A DNA stretch of 64,000 nucleotides from Mytilus edulis (lineage: Eukaryota): positions 13,578,001-13,642,000 of the forward strand of contig NC_092348.1 in NCBI RefSeq assembly GCF_963676685.1. The letters are read 5' to 3'. The position numbers and the translations under genes are program-made. This document shows positions 6,046 through 39,454 of the stretch, piece by piece (position 1 is the first letter of the stretch; the number at the start of each line of letters is the position of its first letter). The notes beneath the pieces were generated by a model. That model searched no databases. It saw nothing but the letters and a program-made list of their open reading frames with translations, and was not told the origin of the DNA.

Positions 6046-8294
6046 TTAACACGTTATTAAAGACGGGGTGAAAGATACCAGACATAAATTCAAACTCATA
6101 AAACGAACATAACAGACACGCCATGGCTAAACAAGAAAAAGACAAACAATAGTACGCAAAACACAACATAGACAAATAAAGACTATGAACCACGAACCCC
6201 ACCAACAAGTATTGAGATGACAAACAACGTCAGTTCCTAGAATCTATACTTCAAAGCCATCCTGTTTTATTTGTGAAGTTGATACGGAATATTAATTGAC
6301 AAGGTCTTGGTATTTTTCAAAGAACATTTTTAGAAAAAGGACAAGTTATTCTTTGACATATTCCTGGCTCATCAACATTCTGGCATCTTCATTTCAATAA
6401 CTCAAAGTGCCGATGATGTATTTGAACTAGTTTTAGAAGGTTTGGCGTCTGCTGTACAAATTATCGTTTAATTATTGTCATTAATTACCAATAAAATGTA
6501 CATATGCATTCAAGTAGACATACAATGAAGTATTACTATCTTCAATTACATCACGTCCTTAAGATTATGTCATTTAAGAGATGTCTGACAGTTAAAGCTG
6601 CTGTTGTCTTGTATTGTCTGGTAATAAAGAGACAAAGCAAACTCTGTTAAAATCAGGATCATGATCTTTTATAGGATCTAATAAAACTATGAGATACATG
6701 ATCCTTAATTAACAAATTCTGACATAACAACTGTAGACTATATACTATATAGTGTTTGTTTTCGTCATCATTATTAAATCATAAATAATGTTAAGACCGT
6801 TGTAATAATTATTTGTTAGGAATCTGGCTACATCAGAATAATAAAAAAAAAGCTTTAGAATTATTCAAAAAACTTGTTTATTATTTCGAAAGGATCCAAT
6901 TATATTGACATTAAACCATCTCCTAATTTGAGTAATATAATATTGCTTTTCTCTCAAAATCTTTTCTTTGGAACGTTTACTGCCAACTTTTTGATAATAA
7001 GAAAAGCATTTAAAAAGATGTTTTAAAAAAAAGAAAACAGGACATAAATTTGTTCCTCTCTCAGTATTATTCAACACTACATAAAATAAATGCAATCTTT
7101 TCAATCAAACGTTAATTTATCAATTAAGAAAAAAACGATTAATGAATATATGTTTCTAAATAATTATTTCAAGCGGTAACCAGAAAAAAGTTTTTAGCAA
7201 CTAAGAAGATACATAGTGAATGGATGTTCTTACTGTAAATGTATAATTGCAAAGCTTGCAGGATCGGTTGTCTTTGATACTGTCATTTAATCTGTTTCCC
7301 ATACGTTAGAAGAACTATACATTTTTGAAGTTACATCAGTTGCATTATATTGTTAATAATACATGCTACAACTAATACGTAATTACATATAAACACCACT
7401 CAAACAAATGCATAATAACTTGAATATAATATTCATATTATCATCAATAGAACGGTGACCAGACACAATATTTTTCAGATTTCATCGTCAAACATACTAT
7501 ATGGCTATATTATATATCATTAGATTCGGAAAAAAGAAATGTGGTAACAATTTTGCCGAAAATAAGGTCAAAAATCAAATTCTGTTATTATTTATTTTCA
7601 AAATTTTAAGATATATACAACACTTTTAGGTTAACATTCAGATACAGACATTTTTTAAAAATTAATAAGCAAAGAAATATCTCGAGCATGTAAAAGAAAA
7701 AAAATCGTCGTCCATTCGTTACACTGCTTATGTTCCCTATATGCACCCACAACTCGCTTATATGTGTCATATGTTTTTAATAGTGAACACACAGAACAAT
7801 CACATTTGTATTAGAGGTCAGTATGATTGTTCTTCTGCTTTCCCATTTCTCTAAACTTCGTGTCAAAGTTTAAGGCATTGAGTATCATATGAGTATCGAC
7901 CGCCTCTTGAGTGCTTAACAAGCTATGACAGTTTTTTTTTTAAAGTGTTTGTATAAATAACTTTGACAATTTCGGGATTTACAATTGTGCCGGCTAAGTG
8001 AAGCTCACATCAGGTGGAATCAAAGTGGATTTTTAAAGAATAAAACTACAAAGGAAATTAAGGAGAGCCTTTTTTTTCTATTTTTCGAAACAGGAATACT
8101 TCTCTCTCAATAATCTGATACACTTTGGTGGAAGCTACAGTCTTTGTGCGTTGTTCCCTTTCGGTAGATTTTAGATTAGAGTTGTTCATGTCGTAGCGGT
8201 CAAACACATCTGCTTCTGTGTGCGCTATATAAATTCTTTGGAACATATCTTTATAGGACCGCAAAATTTTTGAAGATATATACAAACTCTTTTA

Positions 8295-30154: not shown

Positions 30155-32879
30155 GAATAGGTTAAATGAATTTAATAATACATTAAATTATTGAGAAAAA
30201 ATATTTGATTTGTTTGATAATTTTTCTATACAAAAAAAACCAACCTGAATATATACGGAAAACACTTAGAAACTTATACCAAAGTTGAAACAGACAATAC
30301 AATTGTATGCTCATTAAACCTTTTGTCTTTTTTGTTTTCTTTACTAATAGATAATTGGTAGAATTAAAAGTGGGCAAACCAGGTGTAAACCGAAACGAAA
30401 TCGTTCATGAAAATAAACTGACTGGCTCTATCAATTTGATAGTCTGAAGCGCTGGATCAAACTACACCAGGTATCCTCAAACCCTAAGATTTCATAGCCA
30501 ATGACCTTTGGTGTTACATTTCCAGCTTCAAATTTATCAAAGACGAATTAAAGAAAGGTATGTTATCAGTTATGTCAGTGCATGTACCGAGCGTTGACTA
30601 CTAAGCTGATGATACCAATACAATCTATGTATATCTAAGGTTACATAACTGTTCTGTGTGCGAATCAAGCCTCTTTATTAAAAGAGCTGCCTGAAATATA
30701 ATCAAATGCATCTATTATGTGTGTGCTTACCATTAAAGGAAATAGAAGACTAAAACACAGGGTGTTATTTGTTGTTATTGCGCCAATGCACATGAAACGT
30801 ATATATTGTGCATATATTAAAATCGTTGAACAAATATTGTATTAATCTTTAGGAGGCATTTAATCAAAAGTAAATAACATATCGTTTTTAGAAAAATGAT
30901 GATACACTTATGTGTATAAATGTTGTGTCCAGCATGACTGATAAAGTTGAGTCTGTTCCATACCTCTGGACTCACAAACCAGAGAGAGAGAAAAATCAAC
31001 ATCAAGAGCAAGTATTATTTAAACAATCATAAAAAATTACTAATAGTGTTAAGTTTGTAGTAATACTAGATTTAACAGATACTTTCTATTTTCCTAACAG
31101 TCAAAGTCTCATAACTCTGGGAATCTCAAATCGGATTTTTTTTTATAAATCGTACGGTTTGTTATGTTCACCATGCAATCCAACATTTATCTACCTAAAA
31201 AAACATATTCAAGTTATGACAATTTCCCGAAAACGCTGGAACAACTTACCAGAAAATTTCAAAAATCAAAATGAATTTCCTTTTTCAATTTGCGAAAACG
31301 AATCATTACAGAGCGATATGTTTTAATTGCCTCAATGTCTTTTGTGTTAGTTGTTTGTGTGCCACCCGTCAATCATTTGATTGAAGCCAATACCAATCAT
31401 TTTCAAAGTTGATGATTATGCTGTTACACCACTGTCTAAAGTTAGAGAGGGTTAACACTCAAAATAACGTTTAACCCCGCTACACACTTAATGTGTCAGG
31501 AGCCTCTTGTTCAGGGGCTCATTTCAGTTTTTTGTAAATATAAGTAGTCGTCAGATGTATGCACAATGCAAAGATAAATCCAACGACAAAATAAAATATA
31601 CAGACATGCGGTTTGTAGCAATAGACTTATATATTTTAGTACTTATGTATGGTTCTGATAACAAGGAAGTCTTTCTTGCTTGATTTTCATTTCAGTTACT
31701 CCCTCTGTAAGTTTAAAAAAAAAAAATTGGAAGGATGTGCATTTTACTTATAAAGCAACATTTTTTATAACTTATTTGATATTTCAAAGGCGTGGTCTTA
31801 ATGCAACAGCTGTCAGTCAAGCTCTTGATAATAAAAAAACGGTGTGGTATAATAACTCATGAGACAACTCTCCAGCCAAGTCTCAATGTATAAAAAAGTT
31901 AACAAATATAGGTCAAAGTACGGCCTTATCATGGATTCTTGTCTTACACCGTAAATCAACCTCTGAAGGACCGCAAAATGACCATTGTAAAACAATAATT
32001 CAAATAGGAAAACCAACAGTCTTATCTCTATAATTAAAGAGGAACACATACAAACCACACTAAAAAAAAACGACAACCACTGAACAACTGGTCTTGACTG
32101 ACAGCTGTTGCATTAAACTCAGCGTGTTTTAACATTTTGTAAAATAAACGCCAACCTTCACCCTAATCTTAAACAGAACAATACAATATAAAAAAGATAC
32201 GATATATCAACTCGACAACAAAGACATACAAACACAAAAACAAGTAATAAAATTGAGAATGCAAAAGAGGAATTTGTCAAAGAGACACAAACCAAACCAA
32301 AGAGAAAAAAACAGCTGAAGGCCTCCAATGGGTCTTCAACACAGCGAGAAAAATCCCAATGCTAAAGAAGGGCATTAGGTGGCCCCTAAACATAGCGCAC
32401 TGTAAAACACAGTTTATAAAAAATGTCCGAGTCCGATGTCAGAATAGGTAATACAAGTAACTAAACAAAATAGCAATGATGCATAAATTAACGAAGGACT
32501 ACTATCAGATCTGAAGCAGACTCTTTGAAAGAAACATACACTGATCGAATAAGTGACACAATATACATACAATATTAGAAAGAAGGTACCAATATAACAT
32601 AGACGTTATAGGTAGTAATAAGTATCATATATAATGAATTGATAATCGTCCGTATATAATCTACTTTTATAATGAGTCATCTCTTTTGACGTCCGACAAA
32701 TCCAAATCACCTTAGCATCAATAGCATTTTAAAAAAAATTCATTATACATACCAGTATTAAAAACATGAGACGCCATTTTGCCCTCACAAGCCTCACGAT
32801 GACACCAAAATCTAAAGTTTAACCCCCCCCCCCCCCCCCAAATGAACGAATCTTAAGAGCCATAACCCAAATTTATAAG

Positions 32880-33476
32880 GATCGGTCTCCATCTCTCAAC
32901 CCTCCCCCTATACCTCTAACCAATGTAGTAAAGTAAACGCATATCAATACGCACATTAAAATTTAGTTCAAGAGAAATCCGAGTCTGATGTCAGAAGATG
33001 TAACCAAAGAAAATAAACAAAATGACAATAATACATAAATAACAACAGACTACTAGCAGTTAACTGACATGCCAGCTCCAGACTTCAATTAAACTGACTG
33101 AAAGATTATGATTTCATCATATGAACATCAGGCACAATTCTTCCCGTTAGGGGTTTAGTATCATACCATCATAACATATATGAGAAGAACATAACCCGTG
33201 TCATGCCAACAACTGTTTTTAGAATAAATGTGTTTAGTTCCGATGCAAAGACCTTATCAGTGACTCAATATTAACGCCAAAATATGCAATCTTTAATGAC
33301 TTGACAACAGTATCGTAATTATATCCCTTCTGAATAAGTCTATTCAAAGGTTTTGTAAGTTTCTGAGGTGAATACTGACACTTTTGTGCTTTATAAAGAA
33401 TATTACCATAAAAAATTGGATGTGAAATACCTGAACGTATTAGAAGTCTGCATGTTGAGCTATATTTACGATGCAT
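32880..33476 (-). mobile_element. 5'-truncated retroelement fragment (ORF C-terminus 33234-33476 plus 3' tail), probably Penelope-like
   Basis: ORF end HRKYSSTCRLLIRSGISHPIFYGNILYK...LNRLIQKGYNYDTVVKSL; the tail matches 3130-3300; further tail pieces at 32245-32500. Confidence 0.6.
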
Positions 33477-33574
33477 TGATACTGTTATAAAAATAAATTA
33501 AATTAAGAGACAGATGATACTAATTATGAAATGTTAGTCAGTACTTCAATTTTTAACCTATTTCGTTTATACAA

Positions 33575-34691
33575 ATGCCTAGAATTGGTCGACGGAGAAA
33601 TGGGAATGGGCGCGCACGAGTGTCCGTTGTTGAAGCTCAACCACCAGAGAGACGACGCGGAAGGAGGAACCGTGCAGTTGCTGCACCAGGAATTCAAGAT
33701 GTGGGGGCAGTTGTTGGTGAAGTACAAGCACCTCTTTCTCTACCAATCCAGACTCCTTTGCCTTTTGAAAGACAACCTGCCTTGCAAGGTCCCGTAACAC
33801 CAGCGCTGAACGTACAAGCGCCATTTGCGCAAGTTGAAATTCCAGCTCCTGTTCCAATGCCTAATCAAAATGGTGAGATAAATAATGATCATATGCTTAT
33901 ACCTAATCAGTCAGAATGTGATGTTTACGTATCTCAAAATTTAAAAGAAAAATATCGAATAGAGAATACATAGATTTGTCATTACTTCTTTATCAAAACT
34001 TTATTAGTCAAATTGACAGACCTCAAAATGTTATAAGTTATGATAATGCAGCCGGTTCACTTGTAATCACATCAAACAAAAACAGCAAAGTTAAATATAT
34101 TCAAAACATTGAGTCATGGACTAATGCATTTATAAACTATATGAAAATATTTATTCAACGTTTTCCAAATTTAGCTAATGAATTGACCACTTATATGTCA
34201 ATCATTAGATGTACACAAGTGTCTTTTGAGAAGATTTATTGTTATGACCAGCAATTTAGATTAAGAATGGCAAACAATCTTACAAGATCTTGGTCTTCCA
34301 TTGATGGCATTTTATGGTACACCGTCATAGCTAATGGGGAACCGGAGGGTAATACAATTCAACTGACAAGTGTAGGTAATCGACCATGCTATGAATACAA
34401 TTTTAAGGGAGCTTGTCATCGACAAAATTGTTTTACATCCATTTATGTATGAAATGCGGAATGGCCCACCCTTTCGCTGGCTGTCCACAACAAGCAAACA
34501 GCAACCAGGCATATGCTCGTGCTCAAAATGCAGCCCGAGGCACATATCAAAATACAGTAAGAGTTGCTAGAAATTTTGCACCAAGAACTCAAACACATTT
34601 TCAAAGAGCAGCGAATTCGAATCAAGGATTTAGACCTCGAGGAAGCAGATTCCCTGCCCTTCGAATGGCCGCACACACATTTAACAATTAA
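33575..34691 (+). pseudogene. Gag-like ORF1 of the YR retrotransposon (frameshifts near 33950 and 34432)
   Basis: Arg/Pro-rich N-terminus; IESWTNAFINYMKI and YDQQFRLRMA core; zinc-finger cluster CYEYNFKGACHRQNCFYIHLCMKCGMAHPFAGC; basic tail. Confidence 0.8.
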
Positions 34692-34706
34692 ATTATATAT
34701 TTTTCA

Positions 34707-36340
34707 GAATCTTTAATTAATCCGCTGGACATATGGTGTCTTGGCTTTACTCCGAGCAATGTCACAGAATTAAATAAACTCCTTTTCAATTACCCAAATC
34801 AACATGATGCAATGATATTATATAAAGGATTTTCTGAAGGTTTTAGGTTAAATTATTTTGGACCACGATGTAGGATTGAATCAAAAAATTTACATTCAAT
34901 CATCCAAAATCCTTGGGTGGCATGGGAAAAAGTCATGAGTGAAGTAAAAAATGGTCGCATAGCTGGTCCTTTTTTGACTAGACCTATAACTAATCTAAGG
35001 TGTTCGTCTATCGGTGTAATTCCTAAGAAAACTGGTGGATTTAGATTGATTACGCACTTATCTTTTCCGCCAAATTTGAGTGTAAATGACTTTATTGATG
35101 AAAAGTTTACTACAGTAAAGTATTCGTCTTTCGACAATGCTATGGATTTGATTAAAAGATTGGGTTCAAATGTGGAAATTGGAAATAAGGACATTAAATC
35201 CGCCTTCAGATTGCTAAACATTTATCCAGGGGACTTTGATCTATTAGGGTTTAAACTTAATGAATATTATTTCATAGATAAATCATTGCCTATGGGGTAC
35301 TCAGAATCAAATTGCTTATTCGAAAAAATTTCAACTTTTATTCAATGGGCTGTCATGAATGAGTCCAATTCAGAAAATCTTGATCATTATTTGGATGATT
35401 TTTTATTTGCCGGTAAAAGCAATACTGAGGATTGTAAAAATCTGATGAATAGTTTTGATAGAGTATGTTGTCGTCTTGGAGTCCCAATTGCTCATGAAAA
35501 AAACAGAAGGCCTAACAACAAAACTTAGTTATTTAGGTTTACGTATAGACACAGAAAAAATGCTAAAACAAATTCCGGAGGACAAAGTATTGGAGTTAAA
35601 GTCGAAAATTAAATGGGTATTGGGTAGGAAAAAGATCACTTTAAGGGACCTACAATCTTTGTGTGGGTCATTAGCTTTTTGTGGTCGATCTACCTGCCGG
35701 CATAGCATTTAGCAGACGAATTTGTTTGACAAGTAGTCACGCAAAGAAACCGCATCATTATGTCAGAATCACAGAAGGCATGTATCAAGACTTATTGGTA
35801 TGGGAATTGTTTTTAGACAAATTTAACGGCATTAGTTACATGCTTGACATTAATTGGACTTCAAATTCAGTTTTACAACTATTTACTGACAGCGCTGGTG
35901 GTTCAACAAAATGGTGTGGCTGCTTTTTCCAAGGTAAATGGGCTTTTCTTAAATGGCCTGTAGAATGGTCTGGTACTGAAGTTCTCAGGGATAAATCATA
36001 TTTAGAAATGATACCTATTGCACTATCTGTTTATTTATGGGGTAATCTATTTCAAAAAAAGAAAATTTTATTTAATTCGGATAATAATGCCGTGGTTGGA
36101 ATTTTAAATAAGAAGACTTCAAAATCTATACGAATTATGAACCTTGTTAGACACATAGTATATTGGTCGTTATTAGGCAATTTTCACATAAAAGCACAGT
36201 TCATTCCTGGTTATACAAATATAATTGCAGATTGTATTTCTCGTAAAATATTTCAGAAATTCAAAAGTCTGGCTCTGACAGCAGATACACATCCAGCTAC
36301 AATTCCGGAGGAATTTTGGATCATTTTAGGCCAGAAATAG
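34707..36340 (+). pseudogene. Pol: reverse transcriptase + RNase H (frameshifts near 35500 and 35686)
   Basis: RT motifs FRLITHLS, DIKSAFR, LPMG, HYLDDFLF and YLG; RNase H motifs LFTDSAG, YLEMIPI, FNSDN and NIIADCISR. The frame stays open upstream of ATG 34812 back to the acceptor at 34707. Confidence 0.92.
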
Positions 36341-37197
36341 CAAAGCTATTGGACGCATCGAATTCTCAGAACACATGGAAATCGTATAACAATGGACTGA
36401 CTTCATTTGTTTCATTTAGATTAGAAGAAGGTTTAGGAAATACATGGCCGCCCAGTATTTCGCATTTAGTAATTATGTTGCTTATTTATCAAAATTAGGG
36501 TATGCTCCTGCAACGGTTCAGGTGTACTTATCAGGTTTAAGCTATTATTTACGAATAAATGAGCTCACAGATTTGACTTCATCGTTCATTATACAAAAAA
36601 TGTTGAAAGGAATGGACAAATTATATGGTGTAGTAGATAGTGGCAAACCTATAACTTTAGAAATATTAGCTCGATTAATAAACTCGTTGCAATTTGTCTG
36701 TTCTTCAGTATATGAATGTACGTTATTTAGATCCATGAGAATTGGTGACATTACAATTAATAGAAATACGCAACATGTCATTAACAATGACGATGTCAAT
36801 GTTTCACATCATTCACAATCTGCATATATCACAATTCCCTTTTCGAAAACAGACCAAAAAGGTTTATCTACAACATTAACAGTTGAAAGGTTTAATCAAG
36901 TAGATATTTGCCCGGTGAGATTGTTATTAAACTTTATTTCAATCAGACACAAAAACAATGGACCACTTTTTTGTCATTTTAACAAAACCGGTGTAACACG
37001 ATATCAATTTTCTAGTGTACTATGCAAAACCATGAAATTTATTGATTGTAATCCAAATGAGTACAACACATTCATTTCGAATAGGTGCAGCTACACATTT
37101 TGCTATAAATGGCCATACTGATGAAGACATTATGACTTTAGGTCGTTGGAAATCTGCATCCTTTAAACATTATATAAGAATTGAGCTAACCAAATAA
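36316..37197 (+). pseudogene. Tyrosine recombinase (frameshifts near 36470 and 37070, plus a short internal deletion)
   Basis: Catalytic set MRIGD (R), SKTDQ (K), then after the frameshift HSFRIGAAT (HxxR), LGRWKS (W) and HYIR (Y); stop TAA at 37195-37197. Confidence 0.9.
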
Positions 37198-37209
37198 CTT
37201 ATAATTTCA

Positions 37210-37835
37210 GCTTGTCTTAGTAATGAAATATGGATTATTGGTTCTTCAATAATATGCAGTGCTCGTGATCACTCAGAGAACAGACCTTCAGGTAGTAATT
37301 TAGGTCTTTTAAAAAATAATAATTGTTTTTTGCGATGGGCAGGTAAATCTAGTATGAAATGGGACGATGTTGTTGTCACCGTTAACAGCATAATTAATTT
37401 ATGCAGCAAAATTCCACATGCGTTGATATTGCATTGTGGTGGAAATGACATAAGAAATGTACCATGTGTTGCTCTGCTATATCACATTAAATTCACAATA
37501 GCAATTCTGTCTCAAATGCTCCAAAATTGCTCTCTTATATATGGTCAAGCATTCTTCCCAGGCGTTCATGGCGTTACTCAAGCGATGACCATGCCATGGA
37601 AGTTACAAGAAAGAGAATAAATAGGGGAGCGAGATCTTATATACTCAAACATGGAGGATACGTTATCAAATATCCAGATTTTGACGACCGTCATCCAGCG
37701 CTATATTCGGACGATGGAGTACATCTATCATTTATTGGAAATGATATTTTCTTGAATCAAATTCAATCAGCACTTGAAACGTTCATAAAGTATCCACAAT
37801 TGTGTTGTATTTCCTCACGATCACCTTTAATTTAA
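37210..37835 (+). pseudogene. SGNH/GDSL hydrolase ORF carried by the retrotransposon (frameshift near 37540)
   Basis: Block I IWIIGSSI, block II RWAGKSSM, block III LHCGGND, block V DGVHLS. No upstream ATG; preceded by the acceptor-like ataatttcag. Confidence 0.8.
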
Positions 37836-39454
37836 AATAAACATAGTTCATATTGACAATGGATGGAATTACATTTATTTTGTGAAATTTGATTGTTATA
37901 TAAATGTTGAATTCGCAATATCTTTTATTATTTTGACTGTTTAAATGTTGTTAAGTTGATTATAGAATTGGAGATAACTGAATTGTCATGGGTAAATTTT
38001 GTGGCGGATTATCATTCTGTACTAAAGTCCGAATTATAATTTTGGCGAAATTTACTTCATTTTATGCAGACTATGGATAACCCAGCTGCTAATTCTGAAA
38101 TATTGCTGAATGGACCGCCCTTCAGTACACCAGCTTTGGATCGCCCAGCTGTGATACAATGGTTAGTTCAATCGTCATCAACATTTTATTGATTGACAAA
38201 TATTTTGGTTGTGTACTGTTGTTGTAACAGTTGTTGTTGTTTTATGAATGAATTTTGATTAAATGTTGCCATGACAATTCAATATCCAAACAAAATCAGT
38301 GTTTGTTATTTGTTGTAGTGAAATTCAAATCAAGGCATCAATGGCGTCTGTTAGTCAATTCTGATAATTGGTTAATTTACACCAAGTGATATTTTTTTAT
38401 CAAACAATATATTCAATAATATCTCGTTACTTTAGCGAATGTGAAGATCTTATCTATTCATAAAATAGTATAAAAGTTGAGATGATGATAGTCAGGTAGA
38501 CAAAGTCAAGACGACAGTGATAAGTTATAGTTATTAGTAAAATTAAGTGATATCTCTTCTTCCTCGTGATTTCAAAAGTTCATTGGTATATATAAGCATT
38601 AGGACGTAGAATTGTTATCTAGTTGGGAAATTATTTTTTTCTCAACTATTCTACAAATTTATCATTTTTAATGTTGTTTTGTATGTTTTTATATTTAAAC
38701 ATCATAAATTATCATATTTATGTGAAACCTAAATAAGTGTGATAAATGTGTCTGATCCTTTTTGTAAAACGTAATAGTAAATAAAATATGAAATGAAATA
38801 ATAAGTTTGTATGTTTTGCATGTGTACAAAGTACGGACTTTCAAACACCAAAAAAAAAACACCATTAGACATAAAAATCTATCTTGATTTTCATAATATC
38901 ATATAAAGGCATGTTGACGCTAAATTATTTTTTAGCTATTTAAAAATTAATTTAATTGCACATTTGTCATAACTAAAAAAATCATCGGGATCTCCTATCG
39001 TCGCATTGCTACATTACGGTTGAGCGGGCACAGGCTTGTAATAATCATGATTTTCTGAGTCGTGTTCTCTCTTACTTAAATTCAAACACAGCGTGATGAC
39101 ATTTCGTATAAATATTCAAAATCTTAGCATTAAATTCTAAAATTTACAGCGTCATGTAAACAACATTTGAATCTGTATGTTAAGCTTTTAATACAAAACT
39201 TCAAAAGAAAATGTCTAGTTAGACAAAAGTGAGTATCATTCCTCGTGAAGTAAGTTATACATCATAGCTGATTATGGAGTTGAATATTAAAATAACAAGA
39301 GGTTGCATTGTTGCCAGTGAGACAACTTTCCACCAGATATGTTCTTCTGAAAATTTTAAAAACGAAATTAAGCAAGTAATCGTCATATTTTGCTTGAAAC
39401 GCAAAAGCGCTTCTTGATTTTAAAGTATTGTCGCCATCATGAGCTGACTGACAA

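Follow-up and report, generated by a model that had tools for sequence, protein, structure and literature searches.

Our analysis of a retrotransposon remnant in the mussel Mytilus edulis leads us to propose, with a probability of roughly 0.78, that the family to which this decayed copy belongs makes its downstream proteins through alternative splicing from one shared Gag leader. A single phase-1 donor at the end of a basic leader would be joined to phase-1 acceptors located before the SGNH hydrolase ORF, the tyrosine recombinase (YR) ORF and probably pol, while unspliced RNA would give rise to Gag and also serve as the genome. Each downstream protein would take its start codon and a Lys/Arg-rich peptide from the leader, which may further act in nuclear import, in binding RNA or in loading particles. 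The splice signals themselves are present in the DNA and are conserved among families.

The window, by which we mean the whole stretch of 64,000 nucleotides analysed, contains the Ngaro-like YR retrotransposon remnant at 33469..38421, on the forward strand like all features described here. The copy matches other copies only over this interval, and therefore A1 (together with most of the 5′ UTR), A2 and B2 of the split direct repeats are missing, B1 (38045..38421) alone being retained. The order A1...B1-A2-B2 is seen in copies L002-L006 as well as in many diverged families; in L002, the A repeats lie at 660-857 and 6446-6643, and the B repeats at 6076-6451 and 6770-7142. The order of the ORFs (gag-like, RT/RNase H, tyrosine recombinase) is that of Ngaro-like elements, with Pfam matches that mostly fall under the curated cut-offs. 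The gag ORF (33575..34691), which was called from its position and its Cys/His knuckles, encodes the basic leader, a conserved core, the knuckles and an Arg/Gln tail. It is followed by pol (34708..36340), with RT and RNase H (RVT_1, E 3.4e-6; RVT_3, E 0.0065; both under the cut-off), and by the YR ORF (36257..37197), which in L002 matches Phage_int_SAM_1 over the cut-off and Phage_integrase at E 6.5e-5. The SGNH/GDSL hydrolase ORF (37211..37830) displays G-S-S, G-x-N-D and D-G-x-H blocks in the alignment; its L002 counterpart matches Lipase_GDSL_2 at E 8.7e-6, under the cut-off, and the sole PDB match to SGNH, 4c1b, is weak (E 0.62). An SGNH ORF, an optional feature that amphibian Ngaro elements also show, lies downstream of YR in 17 of 19 families. 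The four L002 ORFs gave no Pfam match to a methyltransferase, protease or DDE integrase at E 0.1, the interval between RNase H and YR leaves no room for another domain, and the hallmarks of retroviruses and foamy viruses (protease, DDE integrase, env, LTRs) were not found in the element. Judged by these features, and with a family tree that comprises families of its own genome only, the element is a decayed copy, truncated at its ends, from a Ngaro-like YR retrotransposon family. Compared to L002, it carries 12 indels, eight of which are frameshifts within ORFs (near 33953 and 34435 in gag, 35497 and 35684 in pol, 37536 and 37798 in SGNH; YR is frameshifted as well), and the window copy itself is probably inactive.

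Conservation was evaluated against chance in 19 diverged families, which have a common ancestry and were chosen by hand for their open frames, using generic splice-site scoring matrices and control windows; in coding DNA, the latter show a preference for phase-1 AG and GT (55-60%). Inside the subfamily of the window copy, the donor GT is kept at 21/21 loci, the Pol AG at 27/28, the SGNH AG at 24/26 and both YR acceptor candidates at 23/23, which proves little, because these loci overlap and are ~87-99% identical.

The predicted shared first coding exon (33575..33872) comprises 99 codons plus 1 nt and includes a Pro-rich linker. Ten Lys/Arg are found among its first 30 residues, and the leader is basic in all 17 families scored (7-11 Lys/Arg among the first 30 residues). 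The main donor GT (33873..33874) comes 298 nt after the gag ATG (33575) and hence is in phase 1, as an earlier note on this DNA had stated; it is located 25 codons upstream of the conserved Gag core. In 16/17 families, the top-scoring donor ahead of the core is in phase 1, as compared to 81/148 control windows (binomial p 5e-4), and donor scores there are higher than in the control windows (p 3e-5). The same donor is a junction in nine RefSeq models, and the leader forms the N-terminus of the RefSeq leader+SGNH models P0001, P0004, P0122 and P0124. The earlier note suggested that the leader would act as a packaging tag; it may simply provide a start codon plus a basic, NLS-like or RNA-binding peptide. 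A second phase-1 donor (34376..34377), just upstream of the first knuckle, is used by three RefSeq models that join the Gag core to SGNH; it was rejected as a general feature, since it is not conserved in other families.

The case for splicing is strongest for SGNH. Its phase-1 acceptor AG (37209..37210) has a CTAAC branch-point-like word ~22 nt upstream, and the exon starts 13 nt past the YR stop. The ORF indeed lacks a start codon at its beginning, the first SGNH-frame ATG being found at 37354, downstream of the W-I-I-G-S-S motif. The acceptor is a junction in 12 RefSeq models, three of which start from the second donor and nine from the first, so that these nine models of the window copy's family join exactly the donor and acceptor that the earlier note had predicted. 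Leader+SGNH is also found in five models of the L034/L061 family and in P0038 and P0129 of the L056 family. In a 30-codon window, the top SGNH acceptor is in phase 1 and 6-13 codons upstream of the anchor in 16/17 families, the sole exception being a copy with a frameshift; one of the 17 has an in-frame ATG ahead of SGNH, and the YR-to-SGNH frame and gap differ among families. In an out-of-sample set of metagenome contigs that are at most ~72% alike, a phase-1 TTTCAG precedes SGNH in 6/6 scored and is the top-scoring site in 4/6. We thus regard leader-to-SGNH splicing, seen as it is in public gene models, as very likely.

For YR, the earlier note had placed the acceptor at 36333..36334. This site exists in the window copy and is in phase 1, but it is not conserved across families and is unused by the models examined, and it is probably not the main YR acceptor. 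The conserved phase-1 acceptor is located 78 nt upstream (36255..36256), where its AG belongs to a CAG (Gln) codon of the C-terminal RNase H motif A-D-x-[LI]-S-R-x(1-3)-Q; the YR ORF shares the last ~27 RNase H codons in the -1 frame. The Gln after S-R is encoded by CAG in 19/19 families, versus 83/230 (36%) of the Gln codons elsewhere in pol, and the RNase H end likewise carries CAG in all four metagenome contigs in which it was found. From this CAG onwards, the YR frame is open across the whole overlap of 23-34 codons in 19/19 families, where 1.1 would be expected, and it closes 1-19 codons upstream of the CAG, as expected by chance. Branch-point words were seen near the YR acceptor in 10/19 families, an observation made without a control and not counted here. 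Leader+YR is present in five RefSeq models of the L037 family from three Mytilus species and in P0288 of the L042 family. No such model was found for the window copy's own family, four M. galloprovincialis models of which use 36255-6 with other donors. Leader-to-YR splicing thus appears likely to almost the same degree as that to SGNH, at 36255-6 in place of the acceptor first proposed. Since the acceptor lies inside the RNase H coding region (S-R-x-Q, CAG), the short -1 overlap could be explained without frameshifting.

The situation is less clear-cut for Pol. The predicted phase-1 acceptor (34706..34707), a T-rich tract followed by CAG, is located just past the gag stop, and the Pol frame is open as had been claimed, the first Pol ATG (34812) lying 35 codons downstream. 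In all six families in which gag and pol are apart, a phase-1 acceptor is found 19-25 codons upstream of the anchor; these families occupy three places of the tree and show frame offsets of 0, 1 and 2. In the other 13 of the 19, pol and the tail of gag overlap, with pol in the +1 frame, and the best acceptor for Pol changes from family to family and is often weak. Overall, the top Pol acceptor is in phase 1 in 15/19 families, barely over the coding control (69/114). A leader+Pol model was found neither among the 10 leader-search matches (205-653 aa) nor among the 150 best Pol representatives. RT-bearing gene models may get filtered out of annotations. Most of the 48 N-terminal Pol extensions inspected resemble gag-tail sequence translated in the frame of Pol, and P0163, in which gag is joined to pol via a change of frame in the gag tail, was put down to a variant copy or to prediction and rejected as evidence.

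The argument for Pol is one of conserved acceptors, which are clear in 6/19 families. Leader-to-Pol splicing would be rather likely in the window copy's family and less so in families with overlapping gag and pol. An alternative view is that SGNH and YR are made from spliced RNAs while Pol is made by an internal ATG, re-initiation or +1 frameshifting, at least where gag and pol overlap. The weak, variable acceptors in the overlap families and the lack of a leader+Pol model or read would agree with this, as would the finding that 12/19 families have an ATG in frame with the Pol anchor and ahead of it. However, such an ATG is absent in 5/6 families with gag and pol apart, and these six, the window copy's family among them, have a phase-1 acceptor at a fixed distance at three places of the tree. 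We consider this alternative unlikely.

Far less probable is that YR is produced by programmed -1 frameshifting, and Pol and SGNH by stop readthrough, the splice sites being cryptic and in use in leaky transcripts only. In L002, gag-TAA-pol and YR-TAA-SGNH are both in frame and separated by a single TAA, and a review (Poulter and Butler 2015), in the passage quoted in section 3.4 of PMC13003380, calls frameshifting probable for YR. Moreover, the contigs seen in sequencing runs are unspliced: a single one over L002 828-6105 in run X1, pieces only in X2. Against our own proposal, the predicted junctions were not seen in the four runs, out of 24, that were aligned to L002, two of which gave almost no usable coverage (X24, raw RNA-seq with almost no coverage, and X21, a small-RNA run). 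X1 and X2 consist of contigs, in which rare forms are dropped, and that they come from RNA is a guess. In X1, a contig whose first base is the last one of the SGNH acceptor (L002 5244) was not counted, because a SNP bubble would look identical. Spliced genomic retrocopies were likewise not detected among 42, 9, 40 (of 49 candidates) and 23 matches in four families; L071, which ends 2 nt short of the donor, runs on into unrelated DNA and was rejected. Against frameshifting and readthrough stand the frame offsets and gaps, which differ among families (the gag-pol gap reaches 326 nt), the canonical slippery heptamer X XXY YYZ, found in the RNase H/YR overlap of 1/19 families only, the synonymous CAG choice in 19/19, which would be left unexplained, and the existence of leader+YR and leader+SGNH models.

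The least probable view is that AT-rich spacers, with their many T-tract AGs, and the S-R-F-Q peptide give rise to the acceptor-like words incidentally, and that the gene models are ab initio artefacts: the coding preference for phase 1 and the odd donors in some models would fit, but phase and distance are kept in spacer DNA in 16/17 SGNH cases, CAG rather than CAA is used in 19/19 families plus 4/4 contigs, and models of three species and several loci share the same donor while skipping kilobases of open frame. Gene models use splice-site statistics similar to ours, and for any ab initio model the agreement is in part circular; we used the models as annotated, and several non-RefSeq models link the same acceptors to other donors.

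Shared-leader splicing in such elements was not found described in the literature searched; the text of PMC3537659 nowhere contains 'splic', and neither does that of bioRxiv 10.1101/2021.08.05.455354, which presents the Xenopus elements DIRS-53_XT and DIRS-54_XT as Ngaro-like elements with an SGNH ORF of no proven function. The mussel element resembles them in the order of gag, RT/RH, YR and SGNH, in its A1...B1-A2-B2 repeats and in that no methyltransferase domain was found. It differs from the quoted assumption in PMC13003380 of frameshifting for Ngaro-like YR, in that the mussel evidence favours splicing from the Gag leader. Foamy viruses, according to PMC7828637, make Pol from a spliced subgenomic RNA whose level is set by a suboptimal splice site, and the mussel element would similarly obtain an enzyme ORF from spliced RNA in place of a Gag-Pol fusion. 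Yet foamy Pol is described as a separate, Gag-independent protein, whereas the mussel products would each start with a Gag piece of 41-161 residues, and the mussel element has no protease, DDE integrase or env, such that the likeness is in expression strategy only. In Drosophila gypsy, env comes from a spliced RNA and pol from a frameshift (PMC4276936); the 3′-most accessory ORF would be reached via a spliced subgenomic RNA in both, but gypsy splices env only, while in the mussel element a single coding donor would be contested by as many as three acceptors. Finally, the combination of an Arg-rich peptide before an SGNH esterase recalls ORF1p of the LINE ZfL2-1 (PDB 4c1b; PMC3905857). That non-LTR element encodes the two in a single uninterrupted ORF, together with a coiled coil, whereas the mussel layout would be spliced together.

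We give even odds to the broader idea that shared-leader splicing is general to Ngaro-like elements, perhaps to most of the DIRS order, with the RNase H end A-D-x-L-S-R-x-Q as the YR 3′ splice site, with Pol, YR and SGNH each tagged for targeting by the basic N-terminus of Gag, and with an arrangement of Arg-rich peptide and esterase like that of LINE ORF1p being rebuilt. For the question of how the start-less, overlapping downstream ORFs of DIRS/Ngaro elements are translated, exact junctions can now be named, among them one whose splice acceptor is encoded within a conserved motif of an enzyme (RNase H S-R-x-Q). If the proposal is true, the true N-termini of Pol, YR and SGNH are absent from consensus annotations, and many bivalve gene models listed as 'uncharacterized' or 'xerD homolog' are subgenomic RNAs of retrotransposons. 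Splice-site strength would then set the ratio of enzyme to Gag and would give the host a control point.

Within the element, matches to Pfam, mostly below the curated cut-offs, mark coding regions for gag, RT/RNase H, YR and SGNH, and all coordinates proposed in the earlier note were borne out when the sequence was re-checked. The copy in the window resembles other copies over 33469-38421 of the forward strand only and is decayed, differing from L002, a fuller reference copy of the same family, by 12 indels, 8 of which are frameshifts. Fuller copies carry split direct repeats in the order A1...B1-A2-B2, which is the Ngaro pattern according to the available part of a Xenopus preprint (bioRxiv 10.1101/2021.08.05.455354), and gene models from Mytilus match the proteins of the family at 95-100% identity, which marks the host as evidently a Mytilus mussel. 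At the 3′ ends of some copies (loci L047 and L070), the B-A repeat unit is reiterated in tandem. In the 5′ UTR of L002 sits a 142-nt insertion derived from a repeat of very high copy number (L002:1057-1198), which is missing from locus L003 and from the contigs of the aligned sequencing runs. The window also contains a perfect, MITE-like 24-nt inverted repeat pair, 271 nt apart (31798-32116).

For comparison, 40 loci were hand-picked among 150 genome Pol matches for long open frames and a spread of identity, and together with L002 they fell into 19 families at 80% RT DNA identity, with Pol proteins 35-61% identical to that of L002. Splice sites were scored with generic matrices. Two basal families (L052-L054) show no SGNH match after YR and have an ORF of ~205 codons upstream of gag.

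Splicing of a Gag leader to SGNH and YR is well supported, if indirectly. SGNH is present in 17 of the 19 families, and in 16 of these the best acceptor within a 30-codon window (AG 37209-10 in the window copy) is in phase 1, lies 6-13 codons before the SGNH anchor and is followed by an open frame; the sole exception is a frameshifted copy. An upstream in-frame ATG for SGNH was found in one family of the 17. In L002, YR and SGNH lie in the same frame, separated by just one TAA, as do gag and pol, such that readthrough of this stop, absent from the earlier note, had to be considered as a route of expression. However, the frame and distance from YR to SGNH differ between families, which excludes readthrough or frameshifting as the general route to SGNH.

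For YR, the acceptor suggested previously (36333-4) is not conserved across families and is entered by no model examined. The site that is conserved lies within the RNase H motif A-D-x-[LI]-S-R-x(1-3)-Q, whose closing Gln is encoded by CAG in 19/19 families, even where this Gln moves by two residues; elsewhere in pol, CAG accounts for 83/230 Gln codons. The AG of this codon (36255-6) is in phase 1 for YR, and from it the YR frame stays open over an overlap of 23-34 codons in 19/19 families, whereas the stop frequency (782 in 8172 codons) predicts 1.1 (L003 replacing L002, whose segment contains a stop). Upstream of the CAG, the YR frame closes within 1-19 codons, and a canonical slippery heptamer occurs in the RNase H/YR overlap of 1/19 families.

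The leader (33575-33872) is the N-terminus of Gag itself; it measures 41-161 codons across families and has 7-11 Lys/Arg in its first 30 residues in 17/17 families. Leaving out two families without an anchor, the best donor within the 75 codons that precede the Gag core (GT 33873-33874 in the window copy) is in phase 1 in 16/17 families, as compared to 81/148 control windows (p 5e-4), and donors at this place outscore those of control windows (p 3e-5), p-values that overstate independence because the families are related. Strong donor-like sites also lie upstream of gag (L002:1291 and 1370), and model P0305 implies a 5′ UTR intron in the L037 family (L037 oriented 1736-2573). One copy of that family, L071 (G000:C5:26309000-26318500), ends 2 nt before the donor and is followed by unrelated DNA.

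Public gene models were consulted only after the splice sites had been predicted. Nine RefSeq models of the window family, 7 from M. trossulus and 2 from M. edulis, place the leader-SGNH junction exactly where the earlier note had put it, with the residue expected of a phase-1 joint (Ala; Ser in P0004). In three more RefSeq models of the family, SGNH is reached from a second donor (34376-7). Leader+SGNH models at the predicted sites are also found in the L034/L061 family (five) and the L056 family (P0038 and P0129). Leader+YR models agree with the S-R-x-Q acceptor in the L037 family (five RefSeq models from three species) and in the L042 family (P0288); four M. galloprovincialis models of the window family enter YR at 36255-6 from other donors. 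Clam and oyster models (P0048, P0106, P0215, P0271), judged from the models themselves, resemble these. RefSeq isoform sets generally require transcript support; ab initio models draw on the same splice signals, and for some of the models the annotated genome may be this one.

In some models the leader continues into a short exon close to the 3′ repeats and only a leader peptide is encoded (P0150 at L061 oriented 7879-7920; P0138 and P0139 in Ruditapes), which is possibly a fourth acceptor. In others (P0155, P0158, P0128), the partner of the Gag leader is a host protein with a NAB domain, or leader+SGNH is preceded by a C-type lectin; host genes may here have taken up parts of these elements as exons.

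An out-of-sample set comprised 14 metagenome loci, one of them from the window family. In the others, the CAG codon was present in 4/4 RNase H ends found. Also among these, a phase-1 TTTCAG preceded SGNH in 6/6 scored loci (top-scoring in 4/6), and the single Pol start found had a phase-1 acceptor; the rest were of insufficient length or did not contain the motifs. No splice joint at the predicted sites was seen in the four of 24 listed runs aligned to L002, which offered contigs only or otherwise poor data: X1 gave one unspliced contig spanning L002 828-6105 and X2 unspliced pieces, contigs showing presence and not absence, X24 had almost no coverage, and X21 consists of short, mostly antisense reads. 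The X21 small-RNA reads of ~30 nt, found in 25/30 bins of L002:660-6445, suggest piRNA-like targeting of the window family. Among matches in four families, no spliced genomic retrocopy was found.

As for Pol, in six families, occupying three places of the tree, gag and pol are separate, with frame offsets of 0, 1 and 2 and gaps of up to 326 nt, and a phase-1 acceptor (AG 34706-7 in the window copy) lies 19-25 codons before the Pol anchor in 6/6. In contrast, the acceptors of the 13 gag/pol-overlap families are variable and often weak, an upstream in-frame ATG for Pol exists in 12/19 families, and the top Pol site is in phase 1 in 15/19, near the coding control (69/114). For these reasons Pol is likely to be spliced in the window family, judging from its sites, and possibly so in the overlap class. 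No leader+Pol gene model occurred among 10 leader-search matches and the best 150 Pol representatives.

In the literature searched, no account of DIRS/Ngaro elements being expressed through splicing came up. Splicing is not mentioned in the available parts of the Xenopus preprint and of PMC3783388, PMC3266345 and PMC3537659, and where splicing is mentioned in the accessible text of other papers, it concerns marker introns (PMC7192593), host trans-splicing (PMC6681497) or host genes (PMC2632668, PMC13003380). The family is known; its spliced-leader expression strategy is likely and was not encountered in print in the literature searched. Analogues, as far as the excerpts available describe them, are the foamy virus pol, which is made from a spliced RNA, the env of Drosophila gypsy and ORF1p of ZfL2-1. 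In the strategy proposed here, the Gag leader would be spliced via its phase-1 donor to the phase-1 acceptors of SGNH, YR and, as we infer, Pol. This likely strategy contradicts the published supposition, quoted from Poulter and Butler 2015 in section 3.4 of the available text of PMC13003380, that YR is probably translated via a programmed frameshift.
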